From: Monocercomonoides exilis PA203
Lineage: Eukaryota; Protista; Preaxostyla
Assembly (NCBI GenBank): GCA_001643675.2
Contig: LSRY02000065.1
Span: forward strand, 310,001 to 374,000
Direction: 5' to 3'
DNA: 64,000 nucleotides
Part shown: piece by piece, positions 14,644 through 43,924 of the stretch
Position numbering within the stretch: position 1 is the stretch's first letter
Layout: each line of letters opens with the position of its first letter
Position numbers and translations under genes: made by a program
Notes under the pieces: model-generated
Told to the model about the DNA's origin: nothing
What the model saw: only the letters and a program-made list of their open reading frames with translations
The model's database searches: none

Positions 14644-14969
14644 TCTGATTTTTAGAATGCTCGTTCTGTTTATAATATGTTCAGGATTCAATAAACACAA
14701 TAACAATTCAAACATAAGATTATCAGCAAAAACAAACCGTTTTATCAATCAGAGTTTTTGAAAATGCTATCGATTCAATACTAATTGCAAGGCTTTTAAA
14801 AATAAGTGTGTAATATGCCACGTCAACAAAACCAATGATCAAAGCTATATCCGACAAGAAAAGCACACTTTTTTTCTTTTTGATCGAACCAAAAGCTTAT
14901 TTTTTTGTCAAGAGATCAGATGAGGCAAAATTCTTTCAATTGTGAAAAAAACAACAATTTGTTCCAAAC

Positions 14970-15026
14970 TAGCCCTGGGTGACGTGAAGAAAAAAATTCG
15001 TTACGTCCGTCACCAATTTTCCACTT

Positions 15027-15066
<40 letters not shown>

Positions 15067-18203: not shown

Positions 18204-19690
18204 GGTAAGTGGGCAGATAGCGGCCGGTAAAAAATGAGTGTTTTTCATTTATTTTTTCATGGATAAGAAACAAAGACAAATGCAGAACATGATTATTCTT
18301 TGTTTTTCTGAAAATGAAGTGCAGAAAAATTTGAATGAATTTTTAATCAAAAAAAAAAAAATTATTACTAAGATCGGAATTATTCATGAAAATTCTGCAT
18401 ATTCAGATGCAGATTCACCATCGCCAGCTTTATATATGTCACTTTCAGTTGATGAAACAAGATCATCAACTAATGGAGTTAATGATTCATCTTCACTTTT
18501 AGATTCATTAGAATCACTATCATCGCTTTCTTCTTCTGTTGGAACAGGAAATTGAATTTTTTTCACAAAATCTATGAAAGAGCATTTTTATGAGGAGTGG
18601 AACATGTAACTTGCATAGTTGTCATCAATAAACTTATTGTTAACTCCTGTTTTCTGCAAAAACTGGAGAAATCTGGACAATAATCCCTCTATTCCGTTCG
18701 TGCAGACCACAGAAAGTGGATTTTTGAAAGTGAATTTATGGCATTCTGATAAATATGAATTATCGTATTCAGATAAGCAATGGAAAGGATGCAATTCGTC
18801 ACTGTAAATCATTGTCTTGGGTTTTATATTTGCTAGGATGATGGGAATTAAGGTATTTTTTTTTCTATTTTTGACACTAACAATAATGAATCTTCATCCA
18901 CATTTTTCGCTTTTTCTTTCAATACCTCCGAAAAGCCATATCTTCGATTTTTTTTCTGCCCTTGTGGAATTTTCTCCTTCTCAGAATAGCCTCGTCAATT
19001 TCTACAATTTCTCCATCACCTCCAATTGGCTGAAAATCCTGAAATGTGATTTTCGAAGAAATTGTTCGACACTAAGAATACCAAAAACTAACGGTCTTTC
19101 TGTTGATGTCTAGGAGAAAACTTGTTTGAGTGATATTCAATTTCAAACAAAAATGCAAAATGATTCTGAGAAGTTTGTTCAATGGTATTTTCGTGTTAAA
19201 GAATGAAGTATTTTCAAATAAGCTGATCGATTTATCGCATTTTGCACATCTGTATTGTTTTCTTGTTTCTGATCTTGAATAAATGTTCATTTTATTAAAA
19301 CATCTCTGACATTTTTTGTTGAGAACGTTCAGCACATTATTGATGATCCAACCAAATGAACATGAAACGCAAGAAAATTTATCATTCAAATCTGCAATAT
19401 CCTTTCTCGAATCGTTGATACTTGTTGACATTGAATAGAAATCAAGCAATAAATCATTTATTTTATTTTGTTATATATTATATTCAAATTTAATTGATTT
19501 CAATTTGAACACAAATTTATCATTTTGTTAATGGGAAAATTGAGTTTTTATTAATTTTTATCAGTTATAATCAGTAATAAAATATCAAAAAAACTAATTG
19601 AAAGAAATCATTATATCCAATTGTGTTCAAATAAATTATAAAATTTCACAAAATAACGAAAAAATACCGGTCGCTTTGCACCATCTTACC
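18204..19690 (-). mobile_element. Merlin (IS1595/ISXO2-like DDE) transposon, 1487 bp, with pseudogenised transposase
   Basis: Imperfect TIR GGTAAGTGGGCAGATAGCGGCCGGTA / TACCGGTCGCTTTGCACCATCTTACC; 8-bp TSD CCAAACTT (18196-18203 and 19691-19698). Zinc ribbon CQRC..CAKC, then IVEIDEA, WLFGGIER, IYSDE and TNGIEG. In-frame TAG and TGA plus an A8 frameshift. Confidence 0.93.
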
Positions 19691-20186: not shown

Positions 20187-23099
20187 ATGGATAAAGAAAC
20201 CGAGAAAATGCTCAAATCACACAGATGCGAGTGGATAAAACTGAAAAAAAATAGAATCCAATGAGTACACAAACTGTTTGAATTTATTGATTTATCTTAA
20301 AATTTATTTTGAACAAATATGTAATATTAACATAGGTTATTATTATCCTATGCCGGAAGAATTAATTATTTCCAAACCTTCTCTTGATATTGTTAATCAT
20401 TAAATATTTGTTGCATTCACTCCATTGTATAAAGATAGGATTGCAAAAAAGGATATGCACAGACTTTATATGTCTCCGTGCGAAAAAGATGGAGTTGCTA
20501 GTGGAGAAACGCGTCGGAAGGATTCCTCTTTGATTTTTAATCATAAATGTGATTTGATTGCGAATAATCATATCTCTTTATTTTTTTCTCAGAAGTCCAA
20601 TTTATCAACAATTTCTACTGAAAGGTGAAAAAGCAATGGAACTTCTCAAACAACATTGAAAGGTGAGCTCGCTGAATCTTTCATCAATATCGTTGCCCAT
20701 AGTAATATTTCTTTTCTATCAGAAGCAACAAATGAATTCAATGATTTTATTTCAGCATTAATAAAGTCATCACAAGCGAATCCACACATGAGCAGAGAAG
20801 ATATTTTCCCTCTCTTAACAGAGAGAAATGTGAGGAGACTGCTTCATGAAACGAATTCAAAGAAAAATAGAAAAAGCAATTTCAATTATTTCTAATAATC
20901 CCCTTGGAGTTGTCATTGACGGAGGAGTTGTTGGGGGAGAAAGCTACACAGCAGTGGGCTTTTCAACAATGGATCAATTATCGAAACCTATCTTTTGGAA
21001 ATTGTACAAAGGCTGTCGATCAGAATCCGATTATAACAATTTGGGAACAGAAATAATGACAGAGTTGAGCTCTTATGGATGATCTGTCAGAGCTTGGTGC
21101 TCAGATGGACTGAAACCACAAGTTTTAGCTTTGAAAAGGATATCAACTTATGATGGCAAGGAATTATCTGGTTTGTAACACACAAATAATTATCCCAAAC
21201 CAATTTTTATAAGATGTCAAAACCATTTAATCAAATTGGTTGTCAGTCATGCTTTTTCTGAAAATGTTAAACTTAAGAAAATGAAGGAATTGATTAAAAA
21301 CTTCAGTCAGCAAGCACATTTGTCAATTTTCAGAAACATTCTGAAAAAAAGATGCACATCATTTATTGCTACTCGATGGCTGTGCTTGCATAATAATTGT
21401 TTCTTCATAAGGCAGTATAAATCAATAACAAACAAATCCAGCATGCTTTCAGACAACGAAATCTCTGAAATTGCACTCACTGAATTGTTGCTGTATCCAC
21501 TTTATTCGATGCATCTGATTTTTCAAAAAGAATCGACAAAACTTGGAGATGCTTTTCCTATTGTAATTCAACCAATGAATTTGTTTTATTCTTTTTCAAC
21601 AAATGTGTATTTCGTTGATGGAGAATGGCATAACGCATTGATTGATATAGTTATTCTGTTATATAATTACACACTTTGTGATTTTTCTGGACAACTCATA
21701 GCAACATCACACGCGCTAACTCCAATAGGATCACATAAACATCGAATCAACAAAATTCACTTGTGACCCTAGGAAACGTTTGAATATTTTCAAAAAATAA
21801 ATATTATTATAAAACTATTCAAGTTTTTCTTTTATCTCGAAAATATTATTTTATTAAGTTTCTAAAACTATTATTGATGTGTCCAAAAAATCAAGTGAAT
21901 CTTTATCACATAATTGCGGGGAAGATTCATGTGGATCAATGTGTCTGATCCAAAACTCATCAAATACTTCTTCTTTGTCAAATTCATCATCTTCTTTTTC
22001 ATCCTCCTCTTCATCCTCCTCTTCTTCTTTATCTTCCTCCACCTCAAATGTTTCCTCTTTAACCATGTTTCCTATTTTCCAGAATCCTTCTTCGTTTCAG
22101 TCAAAACAAAATCATTATAACACAACATGTTCGGATACACATTTGTCAAACCTTCCATTTTTATCTACTGAAAAGTTGAAAACTGCTTTTGAAAATTCTG
22201 AAAAAGAAAATGATAAATATGGAAAACGTGTTATTGGATCTTCTTTTTCAACTTCTCTAACCACAAATTGCACAAAAGCTATGAATGTTGAGTCCTCAAA
22301 CTCAAAACTGCAAAGTTTGTTTGATTTCATTTCGACTCTTGATTCGAATTCTCAAGAAAACACAGAAGAATGTGAAAAACAATACGAAATCGAAGATTTT
22401 GATGAACAAGATTTGTTCAGATTGATTCTCGCAGAAGAAGAAAAAAAGGATAATGAATATCAACACAAATCCAATGAAACGGATCGTATCAATTTCTCCT
22501 TGACTAGAAAAACAGCTCAGCATGATGAAGTGTCAGTAAGAATGTCAACAGACATTACAAAAAAATGACAAACTGAAGAAGAAATTTCTTGAAATGAAAA
22601 AGAACCAACGAATAATGAAGAAAACAACGAAAGTGAAAGCGAAAGCGATAGTGATGTGGATTTCATTTGCAATTTTTCTCGTTTCAGAAGAATCGAAGAA
22701 TGTGATGCTGATTTTGAAAATCAAACTTAGAAAAATATTTGTGATAACACATTTTCTGATTGGTGTGGAGGGATTGTGGCAGGTTTTTGAGTTATGTTTG
22801 ATCACATGATGTTCGAAAGGCACAATAGAAGAAAATCTCAATGCATGAAGTTTTTTTTAGAATTATCACTTTTCAAAGAGAAAGATGAAATCACCGAAGA
22901 AGATGGTAACAATTTTTATCAAGATTTAAGTAATTACAGAGAAACACATTCAATACTTACTAACATTGCTTTCAGCATAACAACCTCTCCTTGCCGTGAA
23001 TCATTATATGAGAGAATATTTTCAAATTGCTGCATAACAATTGGAGATCATCACCTCAATATTTCAGACAGAACACTCAATGCTCTTCTTCGTCTTTAA
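20187..23099 (+). pseudogene. Decayed hAT transposase with a long Ser/acidic insert
   Basis: GVVIDG (D1), AWCSDG (D2), RCQNHL (CxxH), ATRWL, and C-terminal dimerisation-like SPCRESLYERIFS...ISDRTLNALL. Multiple stops and frameshifts. Degenerate TIR-like taggagtgacgtgaggtgac at ~19749. Confidence 0.85.
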
Positions 23100-23299
23100 T
23101 TTCTCATGGGAATATTTTTTTTTCAGTTTTGAATCTGTTGAATCGATCATTTTGTTTGTCACTTATTTATTTTCTTTCCCATATCTCTCGACCTTAATAA
23201 AAAGCTGAAATATAGTACAGAATTTTAATGTTTTTTTGTTTAGACAGAAAATCGAAGTTAATTAACTGAATATTGAATGAGCTGAAGCAAAAAAAAAAA

Positions 23300-25434
23300 A
23301 TGAAATATGTGATCTGAGGAGAATAGAATCGAACCTGCATGGAGATGGAGCAAAGAGTGCGTTTATGGTGGGAGGCGGGGCTCTGGATGTGTTGGATGGT
23401 CAAGTTGTGTTTAACAGTCTGGAGGAAGAGGTGGAAGCAGAGGCATGCAATGCGGAAGAGTTTCAGCTGGTGCATGGCACAGGCTTGGAGCTTCCGGTGA
23501 GGAGCACTTGCGTCGTGCTGCAGAATGAAGTGAGCGTGCTTTATGAGACAGCGATTGAGGTGGTGCAAATGAAACGCAAGTCTGTGGAAATGATTCTTTT
23601 GAATATAGGTGTTCCAGAAAGCATGGGAGGAGGAACTGTGGAAGTGGATCTTGGATCTGCGAAGTGACTGAAGCAAAAACAGAAAAGCAGTATTAGGAGG
23701 AACAACTTCAGTGCGCTTGCGCTCGGAGTTCTGTGGGCGATGCGAGTTTTTGTATGTGGGGAGAGCTTGGGAAGCACGGAAGTGGAGGTGAAGCTGTTGA
23801 GGTTCAGCAAGAACAAGACGCGGCGGGGGAAGAATACGCATGTGCGGGAAGTTTGTCAAGGGGTAGTGGCGAAAAAGGAGCGGATACTGTTTGGGTGATA
23901 GATGTGGATGGGAGACGAGGATTCTGAGGAAGAAGAGGAAGAAGAAGAAGAAAATATTTGCTGTTGATTGAGTTTTGTTGAATAAAGGAACTGAATTTGA
24001 TCTGCCTCTGCCTTTTTGATCGGAATTGTTGAGCTGAGAGTCTTCAATATCAGCTGCTGAATGGTTGATGGAATGCTTTGTTGTGTGTTGTGTTTTTGAG
24101 ATTCTCTTCGAAAGACCATATGAATCTGTGTTCAAAGAAGAAGCCAATGAACTTGATGAAGACAAAAAGGTTTGCATCTGAAGAAGATAACTAGATTTTT
24201 CAGAGGGCATGTGAATTGCTTATGATTTGTGTGGCACACTGCACATGCTTCCCATCCACTAATGCCATCACACACGGCAGAGATGAGTCAAACAATAGAA
24301 CAGTCCCACACAGAAGTTGAATGCTGCTTCTGGACACTTCTCTCAGAAACATTGAGGATGTGAACGACTCTGCCCGCTTCTTCAGAGAGAATATCGTTGA
24401 CTGTGTGCGATTTTGTGTATGTGTCTGTGTCTGTGATTGTGATTGTGAATGAGAATGTACCTGTCCCTCTGCTTTGCCTGGTGAAACAAACAATCTTCCT
24501 GTGCTCGCTTTTTCCAGCATTGCCAAGTGCTTCGAGGAAGCAGAAGAAGGCAGAAGACAATCGAGTCTGGCTGTGTTTCCATCTTCATCTGCAAATAGAG
24601 GATAATCTGTGATTCTATTGCTTCTATTGTTTCTATCATTTCAGCTTCTTCTATTGCAGTTGCGGTTGCTGTTGTTGTCTTCGCAAAGCAGAGAAAGCAA
24701 AGAAAAAGAAGCCTTCATCGATAGGAGGAAAGATGTCACTCCTTTCAGCATTTCCACATCATTTGATGGCAGACGCAGATAAAGCAAGGCTGCCGGGGTA
24801 CGCGACGACTGCAGAACAAGAGGCCTTTCACGGAGCATTGAATGTCTTTTGAAAGAAGAAGAAGAAATGTTGATGGAGCGAAGGAAAGAGGATGTTGAAT
24901 GAGACTGCAGCTCGTCAAAGTGGAGGGAGGACTTGAGAGAGGAAGGCTGGTATGTGCTTTGTTGGGTGTAGGGGTGCTGAGAAGGATGTGAAGATTGTGA
25001 AGAAGAAGAAACAGAAGAAGAAACAGAAGGACGAGAATTAATCACATCGCTCTTTGTTCTTCCATGGACTGACTTCACAGGCACAGCGGAAGGGGCTGAC
25101 AAGAACATCGACTGATAAGAAGCGAAGGATGTGGATGAATGGAGCTGATTGCGAGAGAAAGGGAGCATTCCATTTGTGTCCTTTTAGGAGTGCTTTGTGG
25201 CTGCTTCTTTGCCTCTCAGCAGCAGACTGCCTGCGGAGTCAGCTTTTGCAATGGAAGAGTGAGGGTCATGTGGTGATTGATATGATTGAGATGATTGCAA
25301 TGAATTTAATGATTGATGTGATTGGGTAGATTGAATTGGTTGAGATGACTGAGGCGATTGAGGTGTTTGCAATGGAATAGGAGAAGAATGAGAAGGAGAA
25401 GAGGCTGAAGGTGAGGCTGAAGAAGGAGAATTGT
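23300..25434 (-). pseudogene. 3' portion of a Ser/Gln-rich host gene split by the 15-kb element; disabled
   Basis: Acceptor cttaactcacctcag at 25435-25449. ORFs 25184-25372, 24641-25168 and 24200-24526 lie in one frame separated by single stops; frameshifts follow further downstream. Confidence 0.7.
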
Positions 25435-25497
25435 CTGAGGTGAGTTAAGGGGAAAAAGAAGGAGTGACTGTTGATAAAGATGAAGATGTGGAAGAGA

Positions 25498-26191
25498 GGC
25501 ATAGGTGTATTTAAGGTCCTTTTTCGATTCTTGATTATTCTTTAAAACATTATGATAAATAAAAAGTAGAATTAATAATAAAACATTTGTATGGACTGGA
25601 ATTTTGAAATTCTTTTTGATCCTTGAGAAAAAACTATTTTTAAAAATCACCCATAAATCTGAGTATTTTTTCAAAATTTTGATAATAATTGATAATTTTA
25701 AAATAATAAGCAGCTGAGAAGTTGTTAATTATTATATACTCTTATTATAAAAATGATTTTTCAAAAAATAAAACATAAAAAAAAATAAATTAAAAAATTA
25801 AAATATTTTGATCTATCCCACAATTATATTTTTAATATCCAAAAAATAAGAAATTACTTTCTTTCGTCAAGAATTGAACCCCAGCTTGTAAATCTGAGAC
25901 AAATCAAATGTTTAGAAATATTATTAAAGTGTGCAATTAAAGATTATTAAAATTTCATTCTATCCTTAATGAATTTTGTTTATGATTTTTAAGCTGATCA
26001 ATTTTGTGCAGTTTGAGGATATTAATGTTATGCCGTGATGATCTTGAATTAAGAAACGCTGGTGACGCCAACAAAGTTTGAATTTCATATGAATTAACTT
26101 ATTTATAGAATATTTTAACGATTTTCATTATATTTTAATTTATTTTCTTCTGAAATAAGATAGAATGCAAAATGCAAGAGGATATTTATTG
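25498..26191 (+). repeat. Left 694-bp TIR
   Basis: Reverse-complement match to 39925-40618; duplicated ORFs MKKYSDLWVIFKNS... and ...LHFAFYLISEENKLKYNENR. Confidence 0.95.
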
Positions 26192-26610
26192 GATTTGAAG
26201 AATGCATTCTGAAAACAGAATCGCTGGCAGAAATAAAATTCTTTGGGATTGTTGTTCCATCGAGTTTTAAAAGGACAATCTCTACAGTGATTGAATCGAG
26301 CACTCGAAATGGAGAGTTACACATGTCGAACTGCGCAATGAGTGTGAATGGAGTGAAGGGAAACACAATTGGATTTTTCTTGATCAAATCTACAGGAAAG
26401 ATGGTTGAACCGGACTCTCTCATGATTTCAGATGTGAAATCATCAGTCTCGCTATTTTCAATTTCGCTTTCGTCTGGAAATGTGAATAATCAGAACTACA
26501 AGATGAAACTGTTGAATTGCACACAAGAAAGATTGGAGATTGATAGCACATCAGCAGTTGATGGAGAGGCAGCAGCATTTGGAGGGAATATGTGTGATAT
26601 TTTATGAGAT
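26192..26610 (+). pseudogene. Receptor-ectodomain-like fragment abutting the left TIR
   Basis: Open frame ECILKTESLAEIKFFGIVVPSSF...GELHMSNCAMSV... resembles the style of the receptor ectodomain; no start codon, TM or tail. Confidence 0.5.
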
Positions 26611-27559
26611 CATAAAATCGTTGCATCGTTGATCTTTCATGAGTAATTTTTTTTGTTGTTTTATAATTTTCATTTTAAAAAATATTTGTAAATCTGAAGA
26701 GGGATCCTTTTTGAATTAAACAACAAGCAATCGATATAATGTTTTTCAATTAAAGATTTATTGGAAAAAATGTTATGGCTAATTTGATTGTTCAGTTATC
26801 TTTTTTCCATGAAAGTTTATAGACCGGATAAGAAAAGGGATAATGAACATTCTATGTGGGATAAAAGATATAATTTTCCTCAGAAACAAGGTCAGTGAAG
26901 ATTGGGAATTGATGATGGAATTTGACAAGATGATTTTTGTGAAAAGCATCTTTGAAGGAAATACATTTTCCAAAATAACATATGAAAAAATTAATGTATG
27001 CTTTTTTCTTTTGTTCTCATTTTGAACGAGGATGTTTCCATCTGTGGATTTCTCAGAGCTCAAGAATCTGATAAAAAATATAAATGGCTATTTGTTTGTT
27101 TTTCTGAGGAGAACATCAGAAGAGGCTGGATGACGAGAGACAACCATCAGATGGGAATTGCATGCATTTTGTTTTCATTTGGTACAGGGGAAGAAAATGA
27201 ATAAAATTGAAAAGCATTTGGATGAAAGCGAAAAGGAATGAAAACAATTGGGCAGCATTTAGAAAGAAAATAATTCGAGATATTTTTTTCTGAAAAAAAT
27301 TGTAGACAACATCTAAAGCAGGACATTAATGTTTGAATAAAGGATTATGGGAAAAGGAGCGTTGGGAAACAATCGAAAAGGAGATTGACAGCATTAGTGA
27401 TTGGGCAATCCTCTGCATTTGTGATTAGATGGTTAGGTGCGTTCTTTTGAGGAATTTTTTAAATCAATGCAAAACTAACTATTTTAATATCTTTTTTATA
27501 ACTTTTTTTCTCACAGACAACAGCCTTTTTTTATCGAGTGTCATTCGCAGGGACAATCC

Positions 27560-30500
27560 ATTTCAAGCAACATTTTACGAATTATGTGGTTTCTTCTCAG
27601 TCTTCTCCTTCTTCTCATTCTTCGCTATCTTCGCAATAGTCTGCTTCACATGCATTGAATGTCGGGAGTCAGCCTCATTTTGAGCATCCAAGCAGCAGTG
27701 CTTCTGTTCCAATGCAACAAGAAGAAGACAGACAAATTCCTCTATCATCATTTTCTTCCTCATCTTATTCATCTTGTTCTTCTTCTTCTCTCAAAAATGC
27801 ATATTATTCTATTATACATTTTAAAAACCACATGTTTTCAAGATTAGTGAAATGTTTGTTCATTTCAAGAAATTCTTTAAAAGAAAACGTGGGGAATAAG
27901 TTAAAGATGATTTAAATGAAACAAGAAGAAAAAGAAAAAGGTTTCGAAGAAGAAGACAACGCGGATGATGATTTGGGCTGCGAAATCGAAGGATCGATCA
28001 CACACAATGCACACTCAAAGGATAGCAGCATGTTGTTGATCGTTAACTCTTTCTCGCTCGGGAACTGCTTGTGCTGTGCTGAAGAAGAAACAGCAGCAGA
28101 AGATAAAGGCAAGTCATCTCCTCCTTCGTCCTCCCTCTGCCACGCAATCTACTCGTGGAACTGCACCACACCTTTCTCGTATCACAGCAGCATCCCAAAG
28201 CAGTTCGCCACTTCAACCTCATTCCTCCTCAGCTACAGCCCCACAAACTCCACCAGCAGCCGCACAATCCAGAACAGCGCCCGCCGCCTTCTTTCTTCTC
28301 CACCGCCGACTATACAGCCTCCACACGCAGCTTCAGCCCTGCACCTCCCGACACTTCCGATAGCACCCGCACGCAGTCGTACAGCTCCGGCTTCAGCAGC
28401 TCCAAGTGCAGGCTCACAGTCTTCGCAGCTGCTCAATTCTCAGACGCTGTCAGAGGCGCCTGCCGGTCGGACAAATCGCATACCTTCAGCAGCCGCGGGA
28501 ATCGCGCGAAGATGTTGTTGGGCTGTCACACCTCCCGCACAGACGCAAACGATGACAGACAGCTGCCTGACAGCCTGTACGCATCCCGGAAGATCCGCAG
28601 CGACAGCGACTTTGGAGTATGCAAATAACACACACAGAAGTGATTCCAGTTCTCCAAACACAATTCCTCTGAAAACTGCCTCTGATGGTAAAAATGAAGA
28701 AGTCCATGCATTTCCAGAACATTTGACATCACACAGCACCTTCATCTCCTCCTTCAGCTTCGCTGCCTCTGCGCGGCAGTTGTTTGGCAGAAACCTCCGA
28801 AACACAGATGCATCTGCCTCTCCCTTCTCCGACTTCATCCTCTCAAATTCACAAAAAAATATCTTGATCTTCTTCTCAGAAGCCCTTTCAAACAACGTGT
28901 TGGAGCACTTCTGGTACATTTGGAACGATTCTATCAGGAAGTTTTCGCTCTCTTCCGTCAGCTGCTGTAACAGAACACACTTCAAGCAGTAGCGTGTCAC
29001 AGTGCATGAAGAACAACAGTTCATCTTTAGTGAACAATTCATGAACAAACTTTCCAAACACCCGTTCCTCCGCAAAATCCTTCAGGAACAGCTAAACACA
29101 GTGAATCATCGCCTTCTGCACAGCTTCACTCTTCTTCTGATTCTCAATCACCCCTTGAACAGGGCCCTTCTGCTTTCTTGTTATCTGTGCGTGCACTTTC
29201 AGCAGCTTTATCAGAATCTTCGTTTCCTTCTTCATCTGGTTCGTCTTCTGCTTCTCAGTTGTATCCACTCATCCTCCATCACCATCGCCAACGTTTTCTG
29301 CTCCACCACTGCTTGCTTCTCCCACAACACTCACTCCGCTTCCCACTTTCATATCAACCCGCTTCCAGCTCGGGTTTGTGTCGAACATCACAGCGCTGCA
29401 ATCTTCTATGCTCGCTGAAAACTTCTCCTGGAATTTTTCAAACAGATGCGACTGAAGTATCAACGAAATCAAAAACAGAACCATCACTTCTTGCACAGAG
29501 AAACCAACGAAGAAGATATGAAAAGCTTAACCCCCATCCACAAGTTTTCGCTAACCATCCACACTCACAACTCCATCCTGTTGCATCTTGCGTTTCTTTT
29601 CATTCGAAATCCACTCAACACTCAGTTCAACATTCTCATAATCGCAACATACTGACCTGCAGCTCCTTCACCTATTCATTGCACTTCTCGCTCAGCTGAA
29701 GAATCTTCCAATCACACATCTGGATGAGATTGCCATTCCCTCACACAACTCTTTTAGTCACTCGTCAGCTTCAAAAGCCTCTTATCATTTCAAATATAAT
29801 GCATCCTCATGTTGAACTCCATAAACTTCTTATCCGTCTCCTGTTTCACCACTTAATGTTTTTTTTTCTCTTCTACTACTCCTCCTCAGTCTTTTCCTTC
29901 TTCTTCCACTTCTTCTGCTTCTTCTGCTCCTTCTCTCTCCTCCATTACAACCAGCACAATCGCTTCCATCACATGAACGATATCCTCCATCTTCAACATT
30001 TCCGCCTCCATCGCCATCTCCCAAAATTTTCCTGCACTTTGTTCACTGCAACCACAAGCCGCATCACTTCCTCTTTCATCTTATTCGTCATCACAACGCT
30101 CCTCGACTTCATCGATTGCAAAACCAGCCACGCTGTCTCCAACGGAAGCAGCTACGGACAAAAAAGATATGTAGATCGATGGGAACGCATCCACACTTGC
30201 ACAACAAAGACATTCTTGCTTCCAGACTTTATCAACAGCGATTCATCAATAGAAGGAAGCGGAGCAACAAGCGCAATAGAAAGCATCATCGAAAGCACAA
30301 CTTCAGAGGTGCACTCAACGGCCCCAAGCAGCACCGCCTTCCGCGCCACAACATAACCTAGCAGTTTCTGCAGCAGCATCTGCTTGTTACGTACATACAC
30401 CCCAGCCGCCTTAGGCACCAAAATCCGTAGTCGAATCTCGATTTCATTCATAGCTGCTACCGACATCTATGATGCCACAGCAGCCGAGGCACCCGATGGA

Positions 30501-30820
30501 TAAATCGCAGGCGCTGATGAAGATACGGATGATTTATTACACCTGTCACGTTCTTCTCTTTTCTTCTCAACATCTAGATTGAAGAGCCAAAATGGAGTTA
30601 TGCTCCAGTTGAAGAAGAAGATGAAGATGGAGAAAATAATAAAGGCGCAGAGTGAAGCGAAGACTTTGGTGAAGGATCAACCTCAAGAAGCTTTTTCAAA
30701 TACTCCAAAACGTCAATCCGTAGCTCTTCCAATAACAGAAACACTTCATTTATATCAGGATCAGATATATCGATCATCGGCCAATGCTCACCGTTTTTGT
30801 GTGATAAGAACTTTTTAACA
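27560..30820. pseudogene. GC-richer decayed coding fragments of unknown identity (cargo)
   Basis: Coding-like composition with overlapping broken ORFs (27916-28992, 29002-29418, 29724-30356); no motif recognised and strand uncertain. Confidence 0.35.
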
Positions 30821-31580
30821 ATAAATTCTCCTTGAAATATCTAAAAGAGGAAAAAAAAGATGAGAAAAAAGCAAAAGAGAAAATTTCATCCACAAAAGAT
30901 GTGATTCGTCATAAGATTCAAAAAATGATTCATATCATTTTGAGTTTTTGATTTCAGGTCTTTTGATGTTGATATTGCAGATAATATTAGATTTTTTGAA
31001 ACATAAGTAATCAATTAATTTGTTTTAATTCTTGAATATAATTTTTCGTTCTTGAGTATTATTACGTTTGAATTCTCGTTATCATTAACTTTCAAAAAAA
31101 TAATAAAAGACATACGACTTTTCACCTTTTCGTATTTTCAACTCATTGAAATATAGAAATGTTTATGAAAGTTCAAAAAATAAAAATGTCTTTTCAAATG
31201 GATGAAACAAAAAAGGCAAAAATTAATGGAAATAAGTGTTTGCAACAAATAACAACAAATAGTTAACTTTTTAAATCAAATATGAAAAGTTAATTCAAAT
31301 ATTTTGTGAAATAGATCTTTTTGAAACTTTATATTCGATGATACGCAAAAGAAATACAAATGTGAAATTCACAAAAATAAATGATGGGAACGGAATGATC
31401 AACATTTAATAATCATTTTTTTTAAAAGGGATAAAATAAATATCATGTAACTTTTCAAAGAAAAATACCCATTTGTTATTATTATAAATATTTTTATTAA
31501 AATAAATTGTTTTTTTCTCCAATTCAATCTGTCACATTTGAAGAGTCGAATTTAATGATCCCATAAAAAATCACCCATAT

Positions 31581-31834
31581 GGGTCATTCTTTTTGAAAAG
31601 TCGCAAATGGTTTATTTTTGGGTTTAATAAAATTGAACGTTTTTTGACCAATTTTTTCTTTAAATACTGAAACCTTAATAATATCTTGAATTTGAATTAA
31701 CGAACCAATTTGATGTGAGGAAAAGTGCATGCTCGAGAAATCTGATTGATTCTTTCCTAAAAATTGTCAAATTAGGAACATTTTTTATTAAACTCATTAA
31801 TTAAACATTTGCGATTTTTCAAAAAGAATGACCC
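31581..31834. mobile_element. 254-bp MITE (family C) with ~55-bp TIR flanked by ATAT
   Basis: gggtcattctttttgaaaagtcgcaaatggtttatt... / ...ttaaacatttgcgatttttcaaaaagaatgaccc; ATAT at 31577-31580 and 31835-31838. Confidence 0.8.
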
Positions 31835-34800
31835 ATATGGATGTTGGGATGATACTGAATGGAAGCAATATTGAAGGGGCATTATCAGAGAAGAGTGAAG
31901 AAGGAGGAGCATTGAAGATCGTTCTGAAGAATGGAGGATATATGACAATTCAAGAGAGTTCATTTACTGGATGTATTTGCAAGAATATGAGTGAGGGAGG
32001 AAAAGGAGGAGGGATGTATCTGGATTGCTGTTCGAATGGAGGAGGATTTCAGCTTTTATTGATATCCTTTTCTGGATGTTCAGCAACAGTTGGGAAGAAC
32101 ATGTTTGAAAAGAGCAGCAATCTGGTAAACAGTGTGAATACAGAGCGTTTTTCAATTGTTAACACAGATTACGTGGAGAATGGGAATGCATTTGTTGGGG
32201 AAGATGAGAAATATGGAGAAATGGATCTGCGAGTGTTTCTCGTTGAACTGAAGTGGGTGGAGGTATCTGTATCGACTGGTGGGCATGACACATTGGGGTG
32301 TGGAAGTGATGCGTTTCCTTGTTATTCGATATATCACGGCCTGGTGCATCTGACATCAAAATCTGTTTGTCTGATGTTCATTGTTGATGAGAGTGTGATT
32401 GATAGAGAGATAAATCTGGAAGAATTGAATTTGAGTTCGAAGAGCAGAGAAAATTGTAAAGTTGAAGTGAAATCAAGAATTGAAAAAACAAAGGATTCTT
32501 TGATTTCAACAAGAGAAACAGTCTCGTTGGTGAGAGTGAATTTTATGTTTGATTCGTATTTCATCTCTTCACATGAATCATTGATGTCACCCGAAGGAGG
32601 AATTCTTGAGATAAAAAATTGCTCATTTGACTCAACACAATCAGCTGGAGAAGGAAGTATAGAATTAGCAAACATTCCATTTCACATTATCAACATGGAA
32701 AAAGGAGAATTACAACTTGATGGATACACAATATCAAATCTCATTCTTCAAGAATCTGCATTATATCTTTCATCATCACTTCCATCAGTGATTTATTTGT
32801 TTGAGATCAGCAATCCAACAGTTTCTCATTCGCTTGTTGAAATTATTGAATGTGGACAGTTGAATGTGGATAGATTATTTGTTGAAAATATCACAGTTGA
32901 AGGAAATGAAGAATCATTAATATCTTGCCTGTCAATGAAAAAGACAATTCAGTTAGCAAATTGCACAATAGGTGGAGTCAGTTCAAAGACTACAAAAGGA
33001 AAATTGATGAAGTTGGAGAATTGTTTGGATGTGAAAATGGACAGTTGCATTTTCGATGGAAGTTCAAAGGAAAGAAATGAACAATATTTGAATGTGAAAG
33101 AAGAGATGTGCAGATGGTCAGGATCTCTTGTGGATGTTGTGAAGAGTTCTGTGATGATGAAAGATACAGCAATCTCGAGTTCAGCAGAAGGCGGAATAAC
33201 AATGAGAGGTGGAAATGTGATTATTGAAAAAGGAAAGTTTATGAACAAAAATCCATCAATTGAAGGATATCCATCGCTGAGAAGGAACATGATATGTTCA
33301 GATTCTGGAACATTGAATGTGAGGAGTTTGAAAGGTGGTGATGGAGTTTTGCCAAATTCATCACTTTGGATGTTGAATGATGGGTGCAATTTTGAAGGGA
33401 TTGTTTCAGAGAGAGATTCATCGTTTTTCATTCCTGTGTTGGAGAGTGTGGAAGCAAAAGAAGAGACAGATAGAATGAAGCTGACATTTAAAGGGATGCT
33501 TCTTGTTCCATGCAATCTGTCATTTTCAGTTGTGAAGAGGAAGGGAGAGGAGAAAGAGATTGAACATTATGATTTTGATTCAAATGGATTCTTTTCGGAA
33601 ATAGAAGTTGAAGGAAGCGTGTCAAAAGATCTGATCAGCAGTTGTGAAGATGAAATTGATGTGAGCGCGCATGTTTTGTTTGGGAATGCAGAATCTTCAT
33701 CTTTAACAGATTCATTCATTTTGAAGAATGCGAGCATTACTCCACCAAAAGGAGATGAAAAGATTGTTGAAGGAGGAAAAGAAAGGAGGCGGTCATGGGC
33801 GTTGATAATCGCTGTGATATTTATTTTATTGTTTTTGATTGTTCTTGTAGTGTCTATTATTCTGGCAGTTCGATGGAGAAAGGCAAAGAACGAGAACAAA
33901 GATTTGAGAAAAATTGTGAATGATAACTTCAGAAAAGATCCGAAGTTGATTGAGATGGTGACGATGGAGATATCGCCTGAGGAGCAGTGGAGGAGAGCAG
34001 AGAATGAGGCAGAGAAGAAGAATGAAGAGAAGATCAAGAAGAGGGTGTATGAGAAAACCTTGGGGCATTCAGAATCATCAGAGCATTTGCTGGCTGAGAG
34101 TGGATCAACTGAATATATTCTGGGAAGAGATTCAGACAAGATCCCTCAATGGATGCTGGAGAAGGTTGATGAGGAGACGAGAAAGAGAATACCATCACCA
34201 TCGGTCTCATCCACTTCATCCACTTCAACAACTGACTCAGATTCAACATTTGTTCGAGGGGAAGATCTGTGCCCCACCACCTCATCAATGTCGAACTTGG
34301 TGGATGCAATGGCATGTTCATCTCCGCACGAGAAATTGATTGTGGATCTGAGGGATTCATTGTTCATGTTGTTGCATGGAAGGAATGCGAAGAAGGAGAT
34401 GGCGATTGGATCCTTGAAGGAGAGGGAGCAAACAGCTGCTCAGATCATGTTCTGGGTGGCTAATCTTGCTCTCCACTCATTTGATGAAATGGAAAATCCT
34501 CTTTCTTCTCATTCCAATCTGAGTCCTCATATCGTTCTGTTCTCAGAGCACATGGTGATCTGCATTGTGATGCATTCTGATTTGCTTTTGTCTGATGACT
34601 CAGATTCATCGTCGATTTCTTCATCGACTGTTGTGACTTCTGCAAGTGATGAAGATGAAAGTGACTCTCTTCCCTCATCAGCATTTGAAGATGAAGATAG
34701 CTTCAAAAAAGAGTGCCTGAGGTGGAAGGCATCTGAATTACTGATCAACAAGAAGATGGGCGCAACAAAGGAAACAGTTTCATTTTCGATTGGGATGATG

Positions 34801-35028
34801 GTGTGGGAGTGTTTGACGCTGGAGATCCCATTTGGAGACTTTGAGGCAGAGACTGTGGGAGAGAAGATAAAGAATGGAGAGAGTGCGGTTGTGGAGTTAA
34901 GAAAGTTGTGGAGAGCACGCACAGAATGTGGAAGAAAGGGATATAATGATGGATGTGAATTGTGTATTGTTCAAGCGCATTCCATTGGACATAGTTTTTT
35001 CGATGATGATTCATTCAAAAATTGTTGA
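31828..35028 (+). pseudogene. 5'-truncated paralog of the receptor pseudokinase (partial ectodomain, TM, kinase-like tail) with an aberrant 3' end
   Basis: Cytoplasmic tail near-identical to 1-6729 (MEISPEEQWRRAE, SESSEHLL.ESGSTEYILGRDSDKIP, DLRDSLFMLLHG). The ATG lies in the MITE TIR; no signal peptide; APE changed to ASE; homology lost after ~34885. Confidence 0.82.
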
Positions 35029-35570
35029 GACAGAGTCTTAAAGCGAGAATGCATTACTCGAGTATTTTCATATGTGTGGAGTGCGGATGGAAAAATGTTG
35101 AGAAGAAAATATTCTTTCCTAACAATTCTTTAGGAGAAAGACCAGAATGATAATATGAAACAAAAGAAAATTTGATTCAAATGAGTTTTTATATGTTTGA
35201 AAAAAATTGAGTTTGCAGCGATGAGTTAACAATTGGAATTTAACAAAATGGAAAACAAATTCAAACTTTTTAATAAATAAACTAAATTATCACGTAGGGT
35301 TAACCTTTTGAAATAGTGTTCTCATTATTTTTATGAGTGAAGACAATGCTGTGATCATGTTTGTTTTTGATTATTTTTTTTTTTTGTTTTGTTTTTTTGC
35401 AAAGAGAACATGATAAAAATTTTGCAAATTATTAACAAAATATACTTAAATTTTATATCAAAAAGAAATTTAAAATCTAATTCCAAATGCAATTTTTTTT
35501 GAAATTTTTCCATTATAAATATTCAAAAATTTAAAAATTTGATCATTTGCAGAACAATTATATCAAAAAC

Positions 35571-37078
35571 ATGAGTGAGAACGAATTATTGGAAAAAGAA
35601 TTAACTTTCAGTGAGTTTATTATTCAATAGAACAACAAAAACCATCTTGCAGTAGAATTGTTATCAAAATACGGATTAATCAGAAAAAATAGGAAATGTT
35701 GGAAATACAAAAAAAATATGAATCTGAAGTTGCAAAAAAAGGAAAACGATTACTATGCCTACAAATGTTCAAAATGTGGAAGAATTTTTCGTTGGAGTTA
35801 TAATTCAATATTCATGGAATTTCACTTATCACCAATTAAAATTGTATCTCTTTTATATCATTTTTGGTACAAGCATTCAATAAAGGAAGTTACTTTCGAG
35901 CTGAATGTTGCAAACAAAACTGTTGTGAAATTTAATGAAAAGATGAGAAGAATATGCTGCTTTTTTGAAACGAGCAAAATAGAAAAAGTTGGAGACAATT
36001 GCATTGTTGAAATCGATGAAACTTTAATACACAAAAGAAAAAATGGAGTGGGGAGATGCACAGAACAGCAGTGGTTGTGGGGTGTTATTGAAAGAAAGGA
36101 AAAAGGAAAGCCTCAAAAGCTGATAGTTGAATTTCTTCCTGATAGAAAAGCAGATACAGTTTTTTACTTCGTTAAAAAAAACATTGAAAGATCATCAACA
36201 ATAATGTCTGATAAGTTGTCAGCATACAACTGCATAAGTGATAATGGCTTCACTATAGACAGCGTAAATCACACTCTTAATTTTGTTAAACCAGAAAATC
36301 CAAAGGTTAACACGCAGACTATTAAAAGCATCTGGTCTCATTTGAAAAATCATATTCCAAAACGAGGGAGATCATATTAAAAGACAAAGGAATATGTTTA
36401 CGAGTTTCAATACAGATTCAACAATCGACTTTCTCCAACCGCATTTATGAAAGAATTATCAAAGATTGATAAGAAAAATTTGGATGTCTTTCTTCGTGCT
36501 TACAATGATAGTGCTGAAAATATGATAAGTGTTTTGAATAAAGAAAGAAAATTCAAATTATCATCTTATTATTTGAAAAAAGAGGAAATGAAAAGAAAAA
36601 AAAAAGAAACTATGAAATGGTTGATGAAAGTGAGCTGGATGAAGTTTTAAAGAAAAAAAGATTATCGAAGAAATTGATTGAAACAAATAATATTGAATTT
36701 TTAAAAAGAAGAAAAATTGATGATGAAGAAGAGAAAGAAGAGAAAGAAGAGAAAGAAGAGAAAGAAGAGAAAGAAGAGAAAGAAGAGAGAGAAGAAGAAG
36801 AAGAAACCATCTCAGATTTAGAAACAAAGACTGTTAGAAAAAAAAGAAATATTAGAAACAGATCAAAAAATGGTAGATTCGTGAAAATTACAGAGAATCA
36901 ACAGATTGAAACTTTTATTCTTGAATCAAAACTGTTTTGTGAAAAAAAGGAAACAAAAATTGAGGAGATGGAGAAAAAAGAAAAAGAAAAAACAAAAACA
37001 ATTCAAAATCGAAAAATTCTTGGAAGTTTCATCAAATCAAAAGATATTGGAACCGAGCAATATCCTATTGGTTTGTAG
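35571..37078 (+). pseudogene. Merlin/ISXO2-like transposase, inactivated; TIRs not found
   Basis: YKCSKC, IVEIDET, WLWGVIER, IMSDK, VNH..NFV.P, NTQTIKSIW (catalytic E replaced by K) and YVYEFQYRFN. Stops at ~35628 and 36378; acidic (KEE)n tail. Confidence 0.9.
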
Positions 37079-37329
37079 ATAAATGTATCACAACACTTTA
37101 TTTCACATCACTTTTAAACGATGTTCAAACAATGCAATAAAATTACAAATTATCTTTTTTTGTTTATCATCAAATTTGTCAAAACATGTGAAAAGATTCT
37201 TATCTAATTGTTGGAATTGCATTTATTGAACTGAAATTCAATTATTCTATTTGAATATCCATATTGCAATAACAATCAGATTGAATACAATCACTCAACC
37301 ACAATTTTCTCATTCTCAAACAGCATGAT

Positions 37330-39924
37330 TGTTGTTGTTTCAGAAAACAAACTGGAAATCAAGTTCTTCCCAAAATAACCATCATCTCACCATTAATTGA
37401 ATTAAGTTTCGCCTCATCTTCTCACTTCACAAACTTTCCTCTCCTTTTTTCTTTTCCAGTTTCTTTTCACCCGTGTCCACATCACTCTCTTACTCCACAC
37501 CATTCCTCAAACAACCCAGATAGTAATTCCACAACTTTCATCTACTGTTCCTTTCACAAATACAAACTCAAATCAGTTCTTTTTTAAACATCGTTCTTTG
37601 ATGTTATTCTCTTGAAACTGTTTTGATCTCACAAACTTCAGCACATTAGCTCAAACACTCTATTTTTTTCATCCACATTACAACCACATCATTCTGCAGC
37701 TGCACTTCTCAGAACAGTTTTCTCCTCTCCACTCAGCTCAATCTCCATCACTCCCCCTTCTCTGCTCCTCTCACTTGTAACTCCATCCCCCTCAAAGCTC
37801 TCCACAAACACACTCGAATGCACAGCAAATGGCACATTCTCAAACGATGCTCCCCTGACAGAGCAGTTCTGCACATTCAGCATCCCAATCAGCGTGCTCA
37901 CAATCCTGTATCCAACAACCCCACTCTCTCTCTCCACTCAAACCCCACATTCAACACATTCACCACCCCACCTTCTGTTCCCAGAACTATGCTTTGCCCA
38001 GTTCCAAACACCTGCGGAAGACTTATCGCAAACATTCTCACACTCAGGCGCTCATCACTCCACATCACAGCTTCACATCCATTGCTCTTTAGCTCCCATT
38101 CAACATGCATCTTCGCCTGCTTTGCTTTTTCTGCCTCATGCCCACATATTATTGTTCTTCGCTCATACACAAAGCAGTCACTCACCACACATCTGTCGAT
38201 CACCACAACCTTCTGCTCTTTTTGCTCACTCTCTTCCTTCAGATGCACTATCCCACACCAAAGCATCTCACATGCAATCTCCTCTTTCCCACGCCCCAGA
38301 ACATCCATCCCGCGCCCTTCCGACACATGCACCTCATCTCCGCTGAACTTCACCAGGAACAGAAGCAAATCAACACTCTCCCTTGCAAATCTTCCATCAT
38401 CCCTCCCTCGCAGCTCCACTTTGCTTACACCATCTTCGCCCACAAGCTCCATGTCAAACCGTTTCGGAAGGATTGTTGCATTCAAATCCTCACACACCAC
38501 AAACATATCTGCTCCTTCCCCTGCCCTGTTCCTCTCAAACACACACCCCTTCTCCTCAAAGTAATATGAGCAGCTCTCCCCAACAACACTCATACACATC
38601 CCTCCTCCTTTCTCTTCACTCCCCCTTGCCGAGCATCCTTCAAATGTGCTGTTCTCAACAACAACCACCACGCCTTCTGCCACCTCACACTTCAACTCCC
38701 TCCCACTCCCTTCTTCAGATCCACACTGAAAATATCGAATTGTTTCCCACTCTGCATCTCTTTCCTCGTTTTGCAACAACCCCGCTCCTCATTCTCATCT
38801 CGCATCTGTTAATCCTTCTCCAACTTATCTCCAGCTTTGATCGTTTCTCTCCAACAACTACCCCTTCTCCTCCCTCAGAATCACTCCTTCATAAAACTCA
38901 GTCCCTCTCACAAATACGCTCTCCTTCTGAATCTCTATGCATTTCACGCTCACCATCCACATATCAACCACCAAAGATCCACTTTCTTCTTTGCTTTCTT
39001 CACCTCCAATCTGACAGTCAACAATCATCACAACCCTAACACTAATCGTTGCATTCTCCTCCTTTTTCATGTTTTTCATCCCTTTCCACGTTGTGAAGCA
39101 CGGCTCTTCTTCACTTCCACATCTTGCAACATCAAATCCTTCTGATGAAATAAATATCTCCATTGAGTTGTATGGAACGAGGAACATGAACAAATCTTTA
39201 TTCGAATGATGACTATCACTTCCTACAAACAAATTGTTATCGCCTGTCATTGATGAGTAATCAAATCTGAATGCTAAAGTCGTAACAGAAAAATTAAAAT
39301 CCTTTCCCAAAATGAACTCATTCTTTCCTATGACTGCATTGCTGTTCTCAAAAATTACATCAACATCAAAAAGAAATGGCTTCTCATTCAAACAATTTTG
39401 GAAATCCAAATAAAGAAATCCTCCTTTTCCATTTATTGATGAAAGCGAACAAGATGACGCATTTGTTGATTTTATTTCCAGTTTTTCATTCCTTTGCAAT
39501 GTGATTTTTGCAACACCACCTTCTCCACTGCCCTTGTTCTCAATATTTGTTAAGTTGCTGCTTTCAAACAAAACAGAAGAAGCCATCACCATGGAGATTC
39601 ACCAAATGAACGCTCTGCCAAACTGCATCCCTTGAATGTGAAACTTCAACTGGTTGTTATCTACGAAATTTGATCAATATACTTTGTTAATAAAACATTA
39701 AATATGTATTTCATACATTGAAGATGTCCACATGATAAGATCAAGGACTTCATGCTTAGCGCATATTGATTTGGGATGTGATGTTGATGTAATCAATGTA
39801 AATATCATTTCCCACTTTTGCTGTGTTTGCATTGAACTTCATTTCAACAAATCCATATTCGAATCTCCTCTTTTTTGCTGCCAAATACACTTTTCCTCCT
39901 TTTCTTGTGCAGTTGTTGTTGCTT
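37330..39924 (-). pseudogene. Chimeric, frameshifted receptor-ectodomain fragments abutting the right TIR
   Basis: GKGGFLYLD..NAVIGKNEFI, FDVARCGSEEEPCFT and EKGGGMCM..NRAGEGADMFV match repeats of gene 1-6729; abrupt composition change near 39060. Confidence 0.8.
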
Positions 39925-40618
39925 CAATAAATATCTTCTTGCATTTTGCATTCTATCTTATTTCAGAAGAAAATAAATTAAAATATAATGAAAATCGTTA
40001 AAATATTCTATAAATAAGTTAATTCATATGAAATTCAAACTTTGTTGGCGTCACCAGCGTTTCTTAATTCAAGATCATCACGGCATAACATTAATATCCT
40101 CAAACTGCACAAAATTGATCAGCTTAAAAATCATAAACAAAATTCATTAAGGATAGAATGAAATTTTAATAATCTTTAATTGCACACTTTAATAATATTT
40201 CTAAACATTTGATTTGTCTCAGATTTACAAGCTGGGGTTCAATTCTTGACGAAAGAAAGTAATTTCTTATTTTTTGGATATTAAAAATATAATTGTGGGA
40301 TAGATCAAAATATTTTAATTTTTTAATTTATTTTTTTTTATGTTTTATTTTTTGAAAAATCATTTTTATAATAAGAGTATATAATAATTAACAACTTCTC
40401 AGCTGCTTATTATTTTAAAATTATCAATTATTATCAAAATTTTGAAAAAATACTCAGATTTATGGGTGATTTTTAAAAATAGTTTTTTCTCAAGGATCAA
40501 AAAGAATTTCAAAATTCCAGTCCATACAAATGTTTTATTATTAATTCTACTTTTTATTTATCATAATGTTTTAAAACATTATCAAGAATCGAAAAAGGAC
40601 ATTAAATACACCTATGCC
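39925..40618 (-). repeat. Right 694-bp TIR
   Basis: Reverse complement of 25498-26191. Confidence 0.95.
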
Positions 40619-41043: not shown

Positions 41044-42519
41044 CTGGAGGTGAAAGAAGAAGTAGAAGAAAAGAGATAAAAGAAAGAAATGCAAATATTC
41101 TGATGGAAGAAGAAGAAAAGAAGAATTAATAAGAAGTATTCGAAATGAGTTGATGGAAGATGAATAATTGAATCAAGTAATATCGATACGAGGAGAAGGA
41201 GAAGAAGGAGAAGAAGAGAAAGAAAAAACAGAAAAAGATAAAGATAAAGATAAATCAAAATAAAAAAGTCAATGCGAATCGCTGTAATGATCACTAACTT
41301 TTCATTTGAACAAAGCTAAAACTATCACAAAAAATCAGAGCAACAATTAAATGAAAAAAACAAATAAAAATTATAAGAGACTTAAATAAAAATGAACTTT
41401 TAATTCAAATCAGATTGTTTTTAAACATTTTCATAACAAATAAAATTTATTCATATTCATGGAAATTGATTCTCTCAAGTCAATTTATTTCTGAACAACA
41501 TATCAAACAAATATTTTTTGAAAAAATAAACAATTGTTAAATAAAAAGGAATGAATTTTCTTTAACGAATTGCAAAAAAATGCAAAATAAAAATTTCGAT
41601 AATTATGACACTCAGAAAAAACTTGTTAAACATGAAAAATCACTACGGTTTTAAGCCTTTGAAAAATGATAAATAATAAAAATGAGATACTGAAAATAAT
41701 GCTTCAAAAACATTGAAAAATGAATTGGAAAATCTTTATGTGAATTTGCATAGAATGATAAGACGTCTGTCAAAGCGAAAATAGTATTTTAATAAATGAA
41801 AATTTTGGTAAGGTTTATTGATAGTGAATTGTGAGTAAATTTTTGTTTTGAAAATTTTGAATTATTGGAAAGTGTTTTATTTTTTTCAAAGCATAATTAA
41901 AAAAAATTGTTTGCTTTTATCTTTTAAAAAAAAACAGTGCCGGGCACTGACTGACGAGAGATCCACATTTTTCAAGGTGACGCAGATGTTTACACAATCT
42001 AATCATGATAAGTCTTTCATTCTCATTTCAAAAAAAGCATGTGAAATTTTTCAAAATTGAAAAATTTATTAAACGCGCAGAATGGAACAAAATTCATTGG
42101 GCAAAAATTTTTATCCCAGACAGGTGATTTATTTTTTTGAAATCATAAATTTATTGTCAAAATATTATGTTTGAAAATTTGTTTTTCATTTTCGTGAAAG
42201 AACATTGAATAGTGATAACAATGTCTTCAAAAAAGAATTTTCATGAACGAATCTCGAATGAATGCTTTCGTGACAAAGGAAATTCAAAAATATATGGAAA
42301 TGATGATTTCCAAGCCATTCACAAAAGATAACTATTAATTCATCTCCCCGAAAAAAGTTATGATTGTTATTATTATTTCCAAAATTTAATTGAAATAATG
42401 CATGACAAAATTTTTGAATTAATTTGAAATACAACGAATTGTTCCAAACTTTTTCTCCATCGCATCATTTTTTATCTATCATTCCCATGCATAATAATGA
42501 AAAAAAATACAATTAATTT

Positions 42520-42758
42520 GTCCAAATTTTTTGAAAAGTTCATTTTATTTAATTTTCAAATAAGACAAAAATATCATATTTCGATCGAATTTCTGTTCCC
42601 ACTGACAATACTTCACAAAAATGGAAACATAAGCATTGTCAAGATTTTGTTTTCATGGCAGCGAAATTTGGTGAGAGGGAACAGAAATTTGATCGAAATA
42701 TGAAATTTTTATTTAATTTGAAATTTAAACAAAAGGAACTTTTCAAAAAAATTTAGCC
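42520..42758. mobile_element. Second copy of MITE family B
   Basis: Colinear with 8359-8598; internal inverted arms tcgatcgaatttctgttccc / gggaacagaaatttgatcga. Confidence 0.75.
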
Positions 42759-43924
42759 ATATAAATGATAAATTTCATCTAAACCATTTCAAATACTAAT
42801 GTTTAAGATGAAATAAAGAAAAACATTTGTTGGATAAGAATGTTCACTTTTCAGTGATCATTTACAAATATTCAGATAAAAAATTTTTTTCAGTATTTTT
42901 TGATAGAAAAAATTGATTTCAAAAATAATCGCCCATATGAACACTAAAATAAATTATGCGCTTTTATTTGTCAGAGAACAAATAACAAAATAGGGCATGA
43001 AAGTGACAAAATCCAATTAAAAAGTGAAATCAATTAAAGCTTGACATTCTATTTGCAAATTTCAGATCGAAAGAAAGATGTTGATGAAATTAAGGACAAG
43101 GAAAGAAAGGTTGCATAATGATGTTATTATAGACGAAAGAAATGGAATTGAAAGACTTTTGAATAAGTTTTCAAAAAGTTTTTTTAATTTTGAATTTTTT
43201 GATGATTCTATTCTTTAAATTTCCTCAGGTTATTAATAAAGAATTATTATTTTTTAAATGGGACAAAACATTTGTCTTCAGGCATTTTAAATGGAAAATT
43301 TTTCATCTTTGATGAACTTTTTGTGATCAAAAATTTTGAAATAAACGGGTTTGTTTTTTGAAATACGTTTGATGTCACAAAACATAATGTTGTCATATCA
43401 ATGATGTTTGTGTTCATATTTGAAAATCAAATTTATTTTGAAATCTGAAAGTTATTGAAAAAGTTATTTGTTAATCAATTTTTTCATGCATTGTACAAAA
43501 AAAGCTTGAAAGTCTATATTTTCCCTCATATTTTTTCTTCTTTTCATAAACTCTTATCTTTTATAGTATTATCACTCCTTGACGCATATATGCGGTCCAC
43601 AAATAATTATAAAAATTGTTTGTTGTTTTATTTTATTTTATGATACTGTTTATTTTCGAAAATGTCCAATATATATTAAAAATATTATCATAGAATTTCA
43701 TCTTCGAACATTATTGAAATGTCTTTCATGTGAATTCTTATCCTGAAAAGGTGAAAAACAATATTTTCTCTATGCATCATCTTAATTAATGGATTTTTTT
43801 ATCACTTATAATTTGTTAACAGTATTCACATTCTTATTTTTGTATTTTTTTCGTTTTCCTTATTTTTGTTTAATTTTTCAATTTCATTTATTCAAACATG
43901 AACACTCACATACACAAACACATA

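Follow-up and report, generated by a model that had tools for sequence, protein, structure and literature searches.

Gene capture by transposons with terminal inverted repeats (TIRs) is known for Mutator-like elements (MULEs), CACTA, hAT, and Tc/mariner elements, and plant Pack-MULEs, which have target site duplications (TSDs) of ~9 bp, hold several gene fragments, captured from different sources, between long TIRs. Most Pack-MULEs in the first survey were 1 to 2 kb long, and none exceeded 7 kb (PMC6431247). In Ssk-FB4 of Drosophila melanogaster and in multicopy Pack-TIRs (PMC8277862), TIRs of ~700 bp enclose a captured host gene, loci share one chimeric structure, and the mobilizer is unknown or acts in trans; Ssk-FB4 has 9- to 10-bp TSDs, is read as a MULE, and carries an almost complete gene. 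The Merlin elements of Monocercomonoides exilis (PMC8101967) comprise more than 100 copies, some with preserved open reading frames (ORFs), and are grouped into families F1 to F7, which are ~1.5 kb long, have TIRs of 23 to 29 bp (24 to 462 bp for Merlin overall), and all end in sequences that fit GG(C/T)A(T/A)(A/G). Here we describe a 15.1-kb unit (positions 25498 to 40618) in a window of 64,000 nt from M. exilis PA203 (contig LSRY02000065.1, positions 310,001 to 374,000; positions below are those of the window), in which two 694-bp inverted arms enclose receptor-pseudokinase sequence and a dead Merlin transposase.

On balance, we lean toward the interpretation that this unit is a decayed, nonautonomous, long-armed Merlin element with a captured receptor-pseudokinase gene, 5' truncated, and that it was copied in trans to at least one other locus. 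It shares with families F1 to F7 the terminal word, a DDE_Tnp_IS1595 transposase inside, and the lack of a TSD seen in some of their copies, while it differs from them in its arms (694 versus 23 to 29 bp), its length (15.1 versus ~1.5 kb), its host-gene cargo, the absence of an 8-bp TSD at the locus, and a transposase unmatched to F1 to F7 (PMC8101967). The TIR length, captured host gene, recurrent chimeric structure, and unknown or trans-acting mobilizer are common to this unit and Ssk-FB4 or the multicopy Pack-TIRs (PMC8277862), but the gene carried here is 5' truncated, decayed, and derived from a recombining multigene family. Long TIRs around several gene fragments of different origin also recall the Pack-MULEs, from which the unit differs in its size and its Merlin-fitting termini. 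As in multicopy Pack-TIRs, host-gene sequence lies between the TIRs and the same chimeric junctions are present at a second locus (for the left half). It is likely that the element works like a multicopy Pack-TIR and that a cargo-carrying, long-armed Merlin (i.e., a "Pack-Merlin") is a variant of the Pack-TIR elements. A literature search by titles and the starts of abstracts, covering few subscription papers, found no report of gene capture by Merlin, and neither PMC8277862 nor PMC6431247 uses the word "Merlin" in its main text. If our interpretation is true, a 15-kb Merlin with 694-bp arms would extend the known TIR length and cargo size of the superfamily and would put a name to one part of the unclassified repeats (35%) that overlap kinase genes in M. 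exilis (PMC8767320).

Arms, shared junctions, and sibling loci

The arms, whose GGCATAGG termini both point outward, are separated by 13,733 nt and differ at 5 of 694 positions (99.3% identity). Four of these mismatches (positions 18, 39, 42, and 43) lie within the outer 43 nt and one (position 683) lies 12 nt from the inner end, so that 639 identical nt remain between them; with uniform mismatch placement, an identical run of at least 640 occurred in about 1 of 200,000 simulations. Since the mismatches are clustered at the arm edges, the 99% identity cannot be read simply as an age, and it was probably raised by arm-arm conversion or assembly polishing. At both inner boundaries, receptor coding begins immediately, at unrelated mid-gene positions and at the same arm nucleotide. 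Homology to ordinary members of the receptor family starts at the inner boundary of the left arm in a tblastn search of 120 relative proteins against the window, by which the receptor pieces were mapped (Table 1). These findings bear out a preliminary description of this DNA, which had reported an inverted, outward-pointing pair of 694-bp copies with ~99% identity and receptor pieces adjoining both inner ends.

The junctions recur in P0003 (MONOS_15353), a gene model on a 1.86-Mb contig (the window's own protein lies on a 0.41-Mb contig). This model has its start and two short predicted exons in the inner part of the left arm, although the third exon of a P0003-type model opens with a stop in the window's left arm. 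The P0003 protein starts with residues encoded by the arm in three frames, enters piece L at the same junction as in the window, joins L straight to piece M, and has the same foreign tail at its end, so that both receptor junctions are common to the two loci. Because P0003 joins L directly to M, these two pieces represent one 5'-truncated gene that is split in the window by a 5.25-kb insert. The truncated receptor pseudokinase of the preliminary description stands, while its separation of the left fragment from the middle pseudokinase does not. The arm and tail junction marks are found in only 2 of the 120 listed relatives, P0001 (the window's own model) and P0003; a search among two candidates for further gene models starting in the arm, which is weak evidence, gave P0003 alone.

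Two contigs with arm-like sequence were found in the supplement of PMC8101967, whose records appear from their lengths to be Merlin matches with 5 kb on each side; the comparison covered roughly the initial 400 nt of the long records. Record LSRY01001203.1_3345_13776 begins inside an arm copy (~97%, with about 12 differences per 400 nt by eye) and has the variant that the P0003 model requires where the window has a stop. Its start, within the arm copy, lies 5,000 nt ahead of a Merlin match, and the same distance in the window minus the insert is ~5,005 nt; from this spacing arithmetic, the sibling order is probably arm, L, M, tail, and transposase. LSRY01000375.1 has a stretch that, by eye and from collinear motifs, resembles a diverged arm, and the same tail starts 5.5 kb further on.

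Public DNA contigs from four runs of one sample, possibly the assembly's own source, were compared with the arm boundaries. One contig per run spans the left outer junction with 0 mismatches in three of the four runs, and loose ends exactly before position 25498 are seen in 8, 5, 4, and 5 contigs of the respective runs, with a flank agreement (tabulated as a flank consensus) of 0.48 to 0.60. At such low agreement, different flanks (4 to 8 per run, one of them expected to be the right arm's own) meet the same terminal base of the arm. The outer arm tip is a reused mobile end. The earlier view of a nonautonomous long-TIR unit is therefore upheld, with an end reused at several loci and one or more siblings whose cargo junctions are the same. 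In run X3, the summed contig depth over the arm is ~10 to 15 times that of the junction contig, a ratio that is not a copy number, and the terminus had 0 exact matches in the metagenome contigs searched. We rejected the arm as a solo two-ended element: the sequences on its outer and inner sides are unrelated, and the outer flanks vary although the inner junction is shared. A lone CCTATGCC at position 20347 was likewise rejected as a third arm (alignment score, 73; shuffle mean, 85). The left flank (24215 to 25497) is a decayed member of a multicopy serine-rich gene family on the minus strand, which is interrupted by the arm and has relatives 61 to 75% identical over the aligned stretch; five close relatives are among the seven protein matches of this family, none of which reaches the right flank.

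Merlin affinity and competing explanations

The arm starts with GGCATA, which fits the terminal word of F1 to F7; within the window, hexamers of this class occur at a frequency of 7.9e-4 per position. Record LSRY01001580.1_1_6496 carries a 12-nt identical tip (GGCATAGGTGTA) and more shared words at ~nt 337, and its Merlin tblastn match probably ends near nt 1496, about 0.7 to 1.2 kb inside the tip. Since a later-numbered contig has at least 8,017 nt, the record probably ends 5 kb past the Merlin match (assuming numbering by length), and its layout would have the geometry of an ordinary Merlin with the arm's tip. The earlier label "unclassified" probably does not hold for the element, since its termini fit those of M. 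exilis Merlin families. At this locus, however, the TSD test failed: in a scan of 2 to 13 nt, the sole perfect pair was GA/GA, in agreement with the preliminary description. Thus, the element, though probably Merlin derived, is not filed as a canonical Merlin. A canonical decayed F7-like Merlin at positions 18204 to 19690 (transposase on the minus strand; GGTAAG termini; perfect 8-bp TSD, CCAAACTT) provides an internal control.

The inner transposase, which the earlier reading had also recognized as a dead Merlin, contains two in-frame stops, one frameshift, and a K in place of the expected third catalytic E. A code with TAR read as Gln was rejected as a rescue, since the standard code already leaves long ORFs open and the frameshift and catalytic change persist. 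A search for intact relatives gave one match, 29% identical, in 197 candidates, and 11 motifs (6 DNA and 5 peptide) had 0 matches in the available PMC8101967 supplements, including the F1 to F7 alignments. For the inner Merlin as a nested insertion, no candidate for its own short TIRs or TSD was obtained.

We propose that the receptor sequence may have been captured at the arms' inner base through gap repair or template switching, as has been proposed for multicopy Pack-TIRs (PMC8277862). Because the two arms give way to receptor sequence at an identical nucleotide, although at mid-gene positions unrelated to each other, they were perhaps paired as a stem, with the stem-loop opening at capture. 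The loaded unit would then have been copied by cut-and-paste, with a Merlin transposase acting in trans. Afterwards, the window copy would have received 5.25 kb within its receptor gene, had part of the receptor body replaced through family-wide ectopic exchange and its two arms homogenized, and lost its 8-bp TSD by adjacent deletion or recombination with another copy.

Several observations weigh against a long-armed Merlin that moved as a whole. Tips starting with GG are also found in other superfamilies. The arm DNA and the flanks of the inner transposase are no more alike than shuffles, so the inner transposase may be a passenger. No 8-bp TSD was found at the 15.1-kb locus (8-mers alike at 3 of 8 positions), while the canonical Merlin in the same window keeps a perfect one, and a contig with the left flank but without the arm continues in a way unlike the right flank (14 letters, in two runs). 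The sibling evidence covers the left half of the element, with no sibling right arm seen, and the identification of the P0003 locus with LSRY01001203.1, which we infer, rests on one shared variant and the spacing. The 694-bp arms also exceed the reported Merlin TIR ranges (PMC8101967). Given the lack of an 8-bp TSD and flanks unlike one target site, movement of the exact 15.1-kb unit is unproven.

The missing TSD and unlike flanks would be accommodated if two separate arm-led units with Merlin-type ends had been rearranged head to head and their arms then converted, so that the 15.1 kb never moved whole. The long identical run between the edge mismatches fits such a conversion, as does right-side cargo that is more decayed and comes from other paralogs. 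We nevertheless regard this history as unlikely, since cut-and-paste requires two ends and the left unit's sibling elsewhere implies a paired ancestor. TSD loss is, moreover, not unusual in ordinary Merlin: among the 19 published copies with two readable flanks (copies with a flank not shown or an end lost being excluded), 14 match at 7 or 8 of 8 positions and 5 have no TSD (PMC8101967). Alternatively, the unit would be a Mutator/Foldback-type element like Ssk-FB4, with the Merlin transposase incidental and the tip resemblance coincidental; arm length and gene capture match FB4 (PMC8277862), and the arm has no DNA similarity to the flanks of that transposase. This we consider improbable, given that the tip fits all seven local Merlin families, that the 12-nt identical tip stands ahead of a Merlin match elsewhere, and that the 9- to 10-bp TSD of such elements is absent. 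No 9-bp TSD was found (9-mers alike at 3 of 9 positions), the 9- to 11-bp TSD of the Pack-MULE/Foldback criterion is absent, and the interior ORFs scanned contain no MULE domain. Neither do the interior ORFs scanned against Pfam contain the PolB, integrase, or capsid genes of Polinton/Maverick elements, and the 6-bp TSD of such elements is absent as well (flanking 6-mers alike at 2 of 6 positions).

Cargo transposition would be unnecessary if the arm were the relic end of an ordinary Merlin and the arm-L-M-transposase block an old segmental duplication, with polishing having raised the arm identity. The window is densely packed with the remains of nested repeats, edge-clustered mismatches are also expected from polishing with multi-mapped reads, and there is one close sibling among the 120 listed proteins; yet several flanks meet an identical terminal base, and the two arms break off internally at one common nucleotide, next to receptor positions that are unrelated, so we give this explanation little credence. 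A further reading would make the long-armed Merlin a mobile receptor cassette, in which a promoter, a start codon, and two in-frame short exons come from the arm (compare the MONOS_15353 model), the junctions are fixed, and the body is rewritten by gene conversion from hundreds of paralogs. We think this very improbable; if true, a gut protist would have a variable surface protein encoded on a transposable unit.

Receptor cargo and family-wide exchange

At either end of the window's receptor gene, P0003 is its best relative (start of L, 55 of 60 residues; last junction, 0.88 to 0.94, with none better). Over residues 661 to 1010 of M, it ranks below 67 to 72 of the 77 to 79 relatives in four of five comparison windows. 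Its high rank at the ends and low rank in the middle indicate that part of the receptor body was exchanged with other paralogs. In a control with 81 sequences (80 of the 120 relatives, which cover the region, and the window's), the median was 8 different best partners over 12 comparison windows, a measure that includes noise among similarly distant paralogs. Judged from sequence, this suggests that the receptor-pseudokinase family is a patchwork throughout, which points to extensive ectopic exchange among surface receptors. Since the mosaicism is family wide and the junction marks occur in 2 of the 120 listed relatives, the element does not explain the family expansion. It carries receptor sequence and takes part in the family-wide exchange; its role as the driver, as implied by the earlier proposal that such an element shuffles the pieces of this family, is not supported.

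Table 1. Features of the 15.1-kb unit
Feature	Positions	Strand	Remarks
Left arm, 694-bp TIR	25498..26191	+	Tip GGCATAGG, Merlin-type
Piece L, mid-ectodomain of receptor pseudokinase, joined to arm mid-gene	26192..26592	+	P0017 residues ~144-271
Later insert between L and M, 5.25 kb	26593..31843		Missing from sibling gene model
Inverted repeat like a MITE (miniature inverted-repeat transposable element), right end of insert	31572..31843		CA...TG ends; without TSD; arms of ~85 nt (83% alike)
Piece M, ectodomain, transmembrane segment, and kinase-like region	31844..34878	+	Same receptor gene as L
Foreign tail, in frame (SAVVELRKLW...)	34879..35028	+	Common to sibling P0003; its start also at third locus
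Dead Merlin transposase	35571..37078	+	IS1595/Merlin type, PF12762, E 3e-17
Piece R3, ectodomain fragment, more distant receptor subfamily	37686..38788	-	37% to P0096
Piece R2, ectodomain fragment	39020..39639	-	P0017 residues ~261-464, ~71%
Piece R1, decayed ectodomain fragment, abuts inner end of right arm	39759..39924	-	P0017 residues ~705-760, ~60%
Right arm, 694-bp TIR	39925..40618	-	Inverted copy of left arm

The largest interior ORF has 149 relatives, and the named ones among the 120 listed are all from Monocercomonoides exilis; the protein matches thus assign the window to this oxymonad. Long ORFs are open in the standard genetic code without TAR read-through. Full-length receptor relatives have a transmembrane segment and match Pfam kinase models in the C-lobe half only, and their best relatives of solved structure are ILK, Roco4, and MLKL (E of 7e-6 or weaker); these features agree with the designation "pseudokinase." Piece L is 80% identical to P0003 residues 15 to 157, piece M (gene model P0001, 31828 to 35028) is cut within the kinase C-lobe at "NGE," and pieces R1, R2, and R3 come from different paralogs. 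The RNA runs X5 to X8 contain 23 to 25% of the words of positions 25400 to 35000, which is not evidence of expression.

The 5.25-kb insert has AT-rich ends and a decayed, serine-rich, coding-like middle (~27900 to 30500) without a Pfam or Atlas match. Its AT-rich ends and the spacers around the transposase have no identified coding, so the preliminary statement that the interior is almost all gene fragments was loose, although the MITE reported in the cargo was found. The word GAGTCGAATT, which lies near the tip of an inverted repeat at 8113 to 8836 (at 8126), recurs at 31543 just ahead of the cargo MITE and is perhaps a remnant end of the insert. Outside the unit, positions 1 to 6726 hold an open receptor-pseudokinase ORF (2,242 aa from stop to stop; 96.8% to P0086 over 1,000 aa), the 3' part of which has 76% DNA identity to piece M.

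Other repeats in the window

A TIR-bounded unit with (T)AGCCCTGGGTGACGTG ends, in which no transposase was recognized, occupies ~14971 to 18193 and abuts the left TSD of the canonical Merlin. On the other side of that Merlin, a decayed transposase (~20630 to 23100) includes two ORFs that were scanned without a transposase Pfam match; judged by eye, its translation looks hAT-like. At 7539 to 9597, a 573-bp inverted repeat (98%) surrounds the nested inverted repeat at 8113 to 8836, which contains a MITE also found at 42512 to 42766, and the outer ends of the larger repeat enter low-complexity sequence. Three diverged copies of another hypothetical-protein family (9794 to 11043, 13315 to 14552, and 15714 to 16107; 67 to 70% DNA identity) lie within positions 9706 to 16110.

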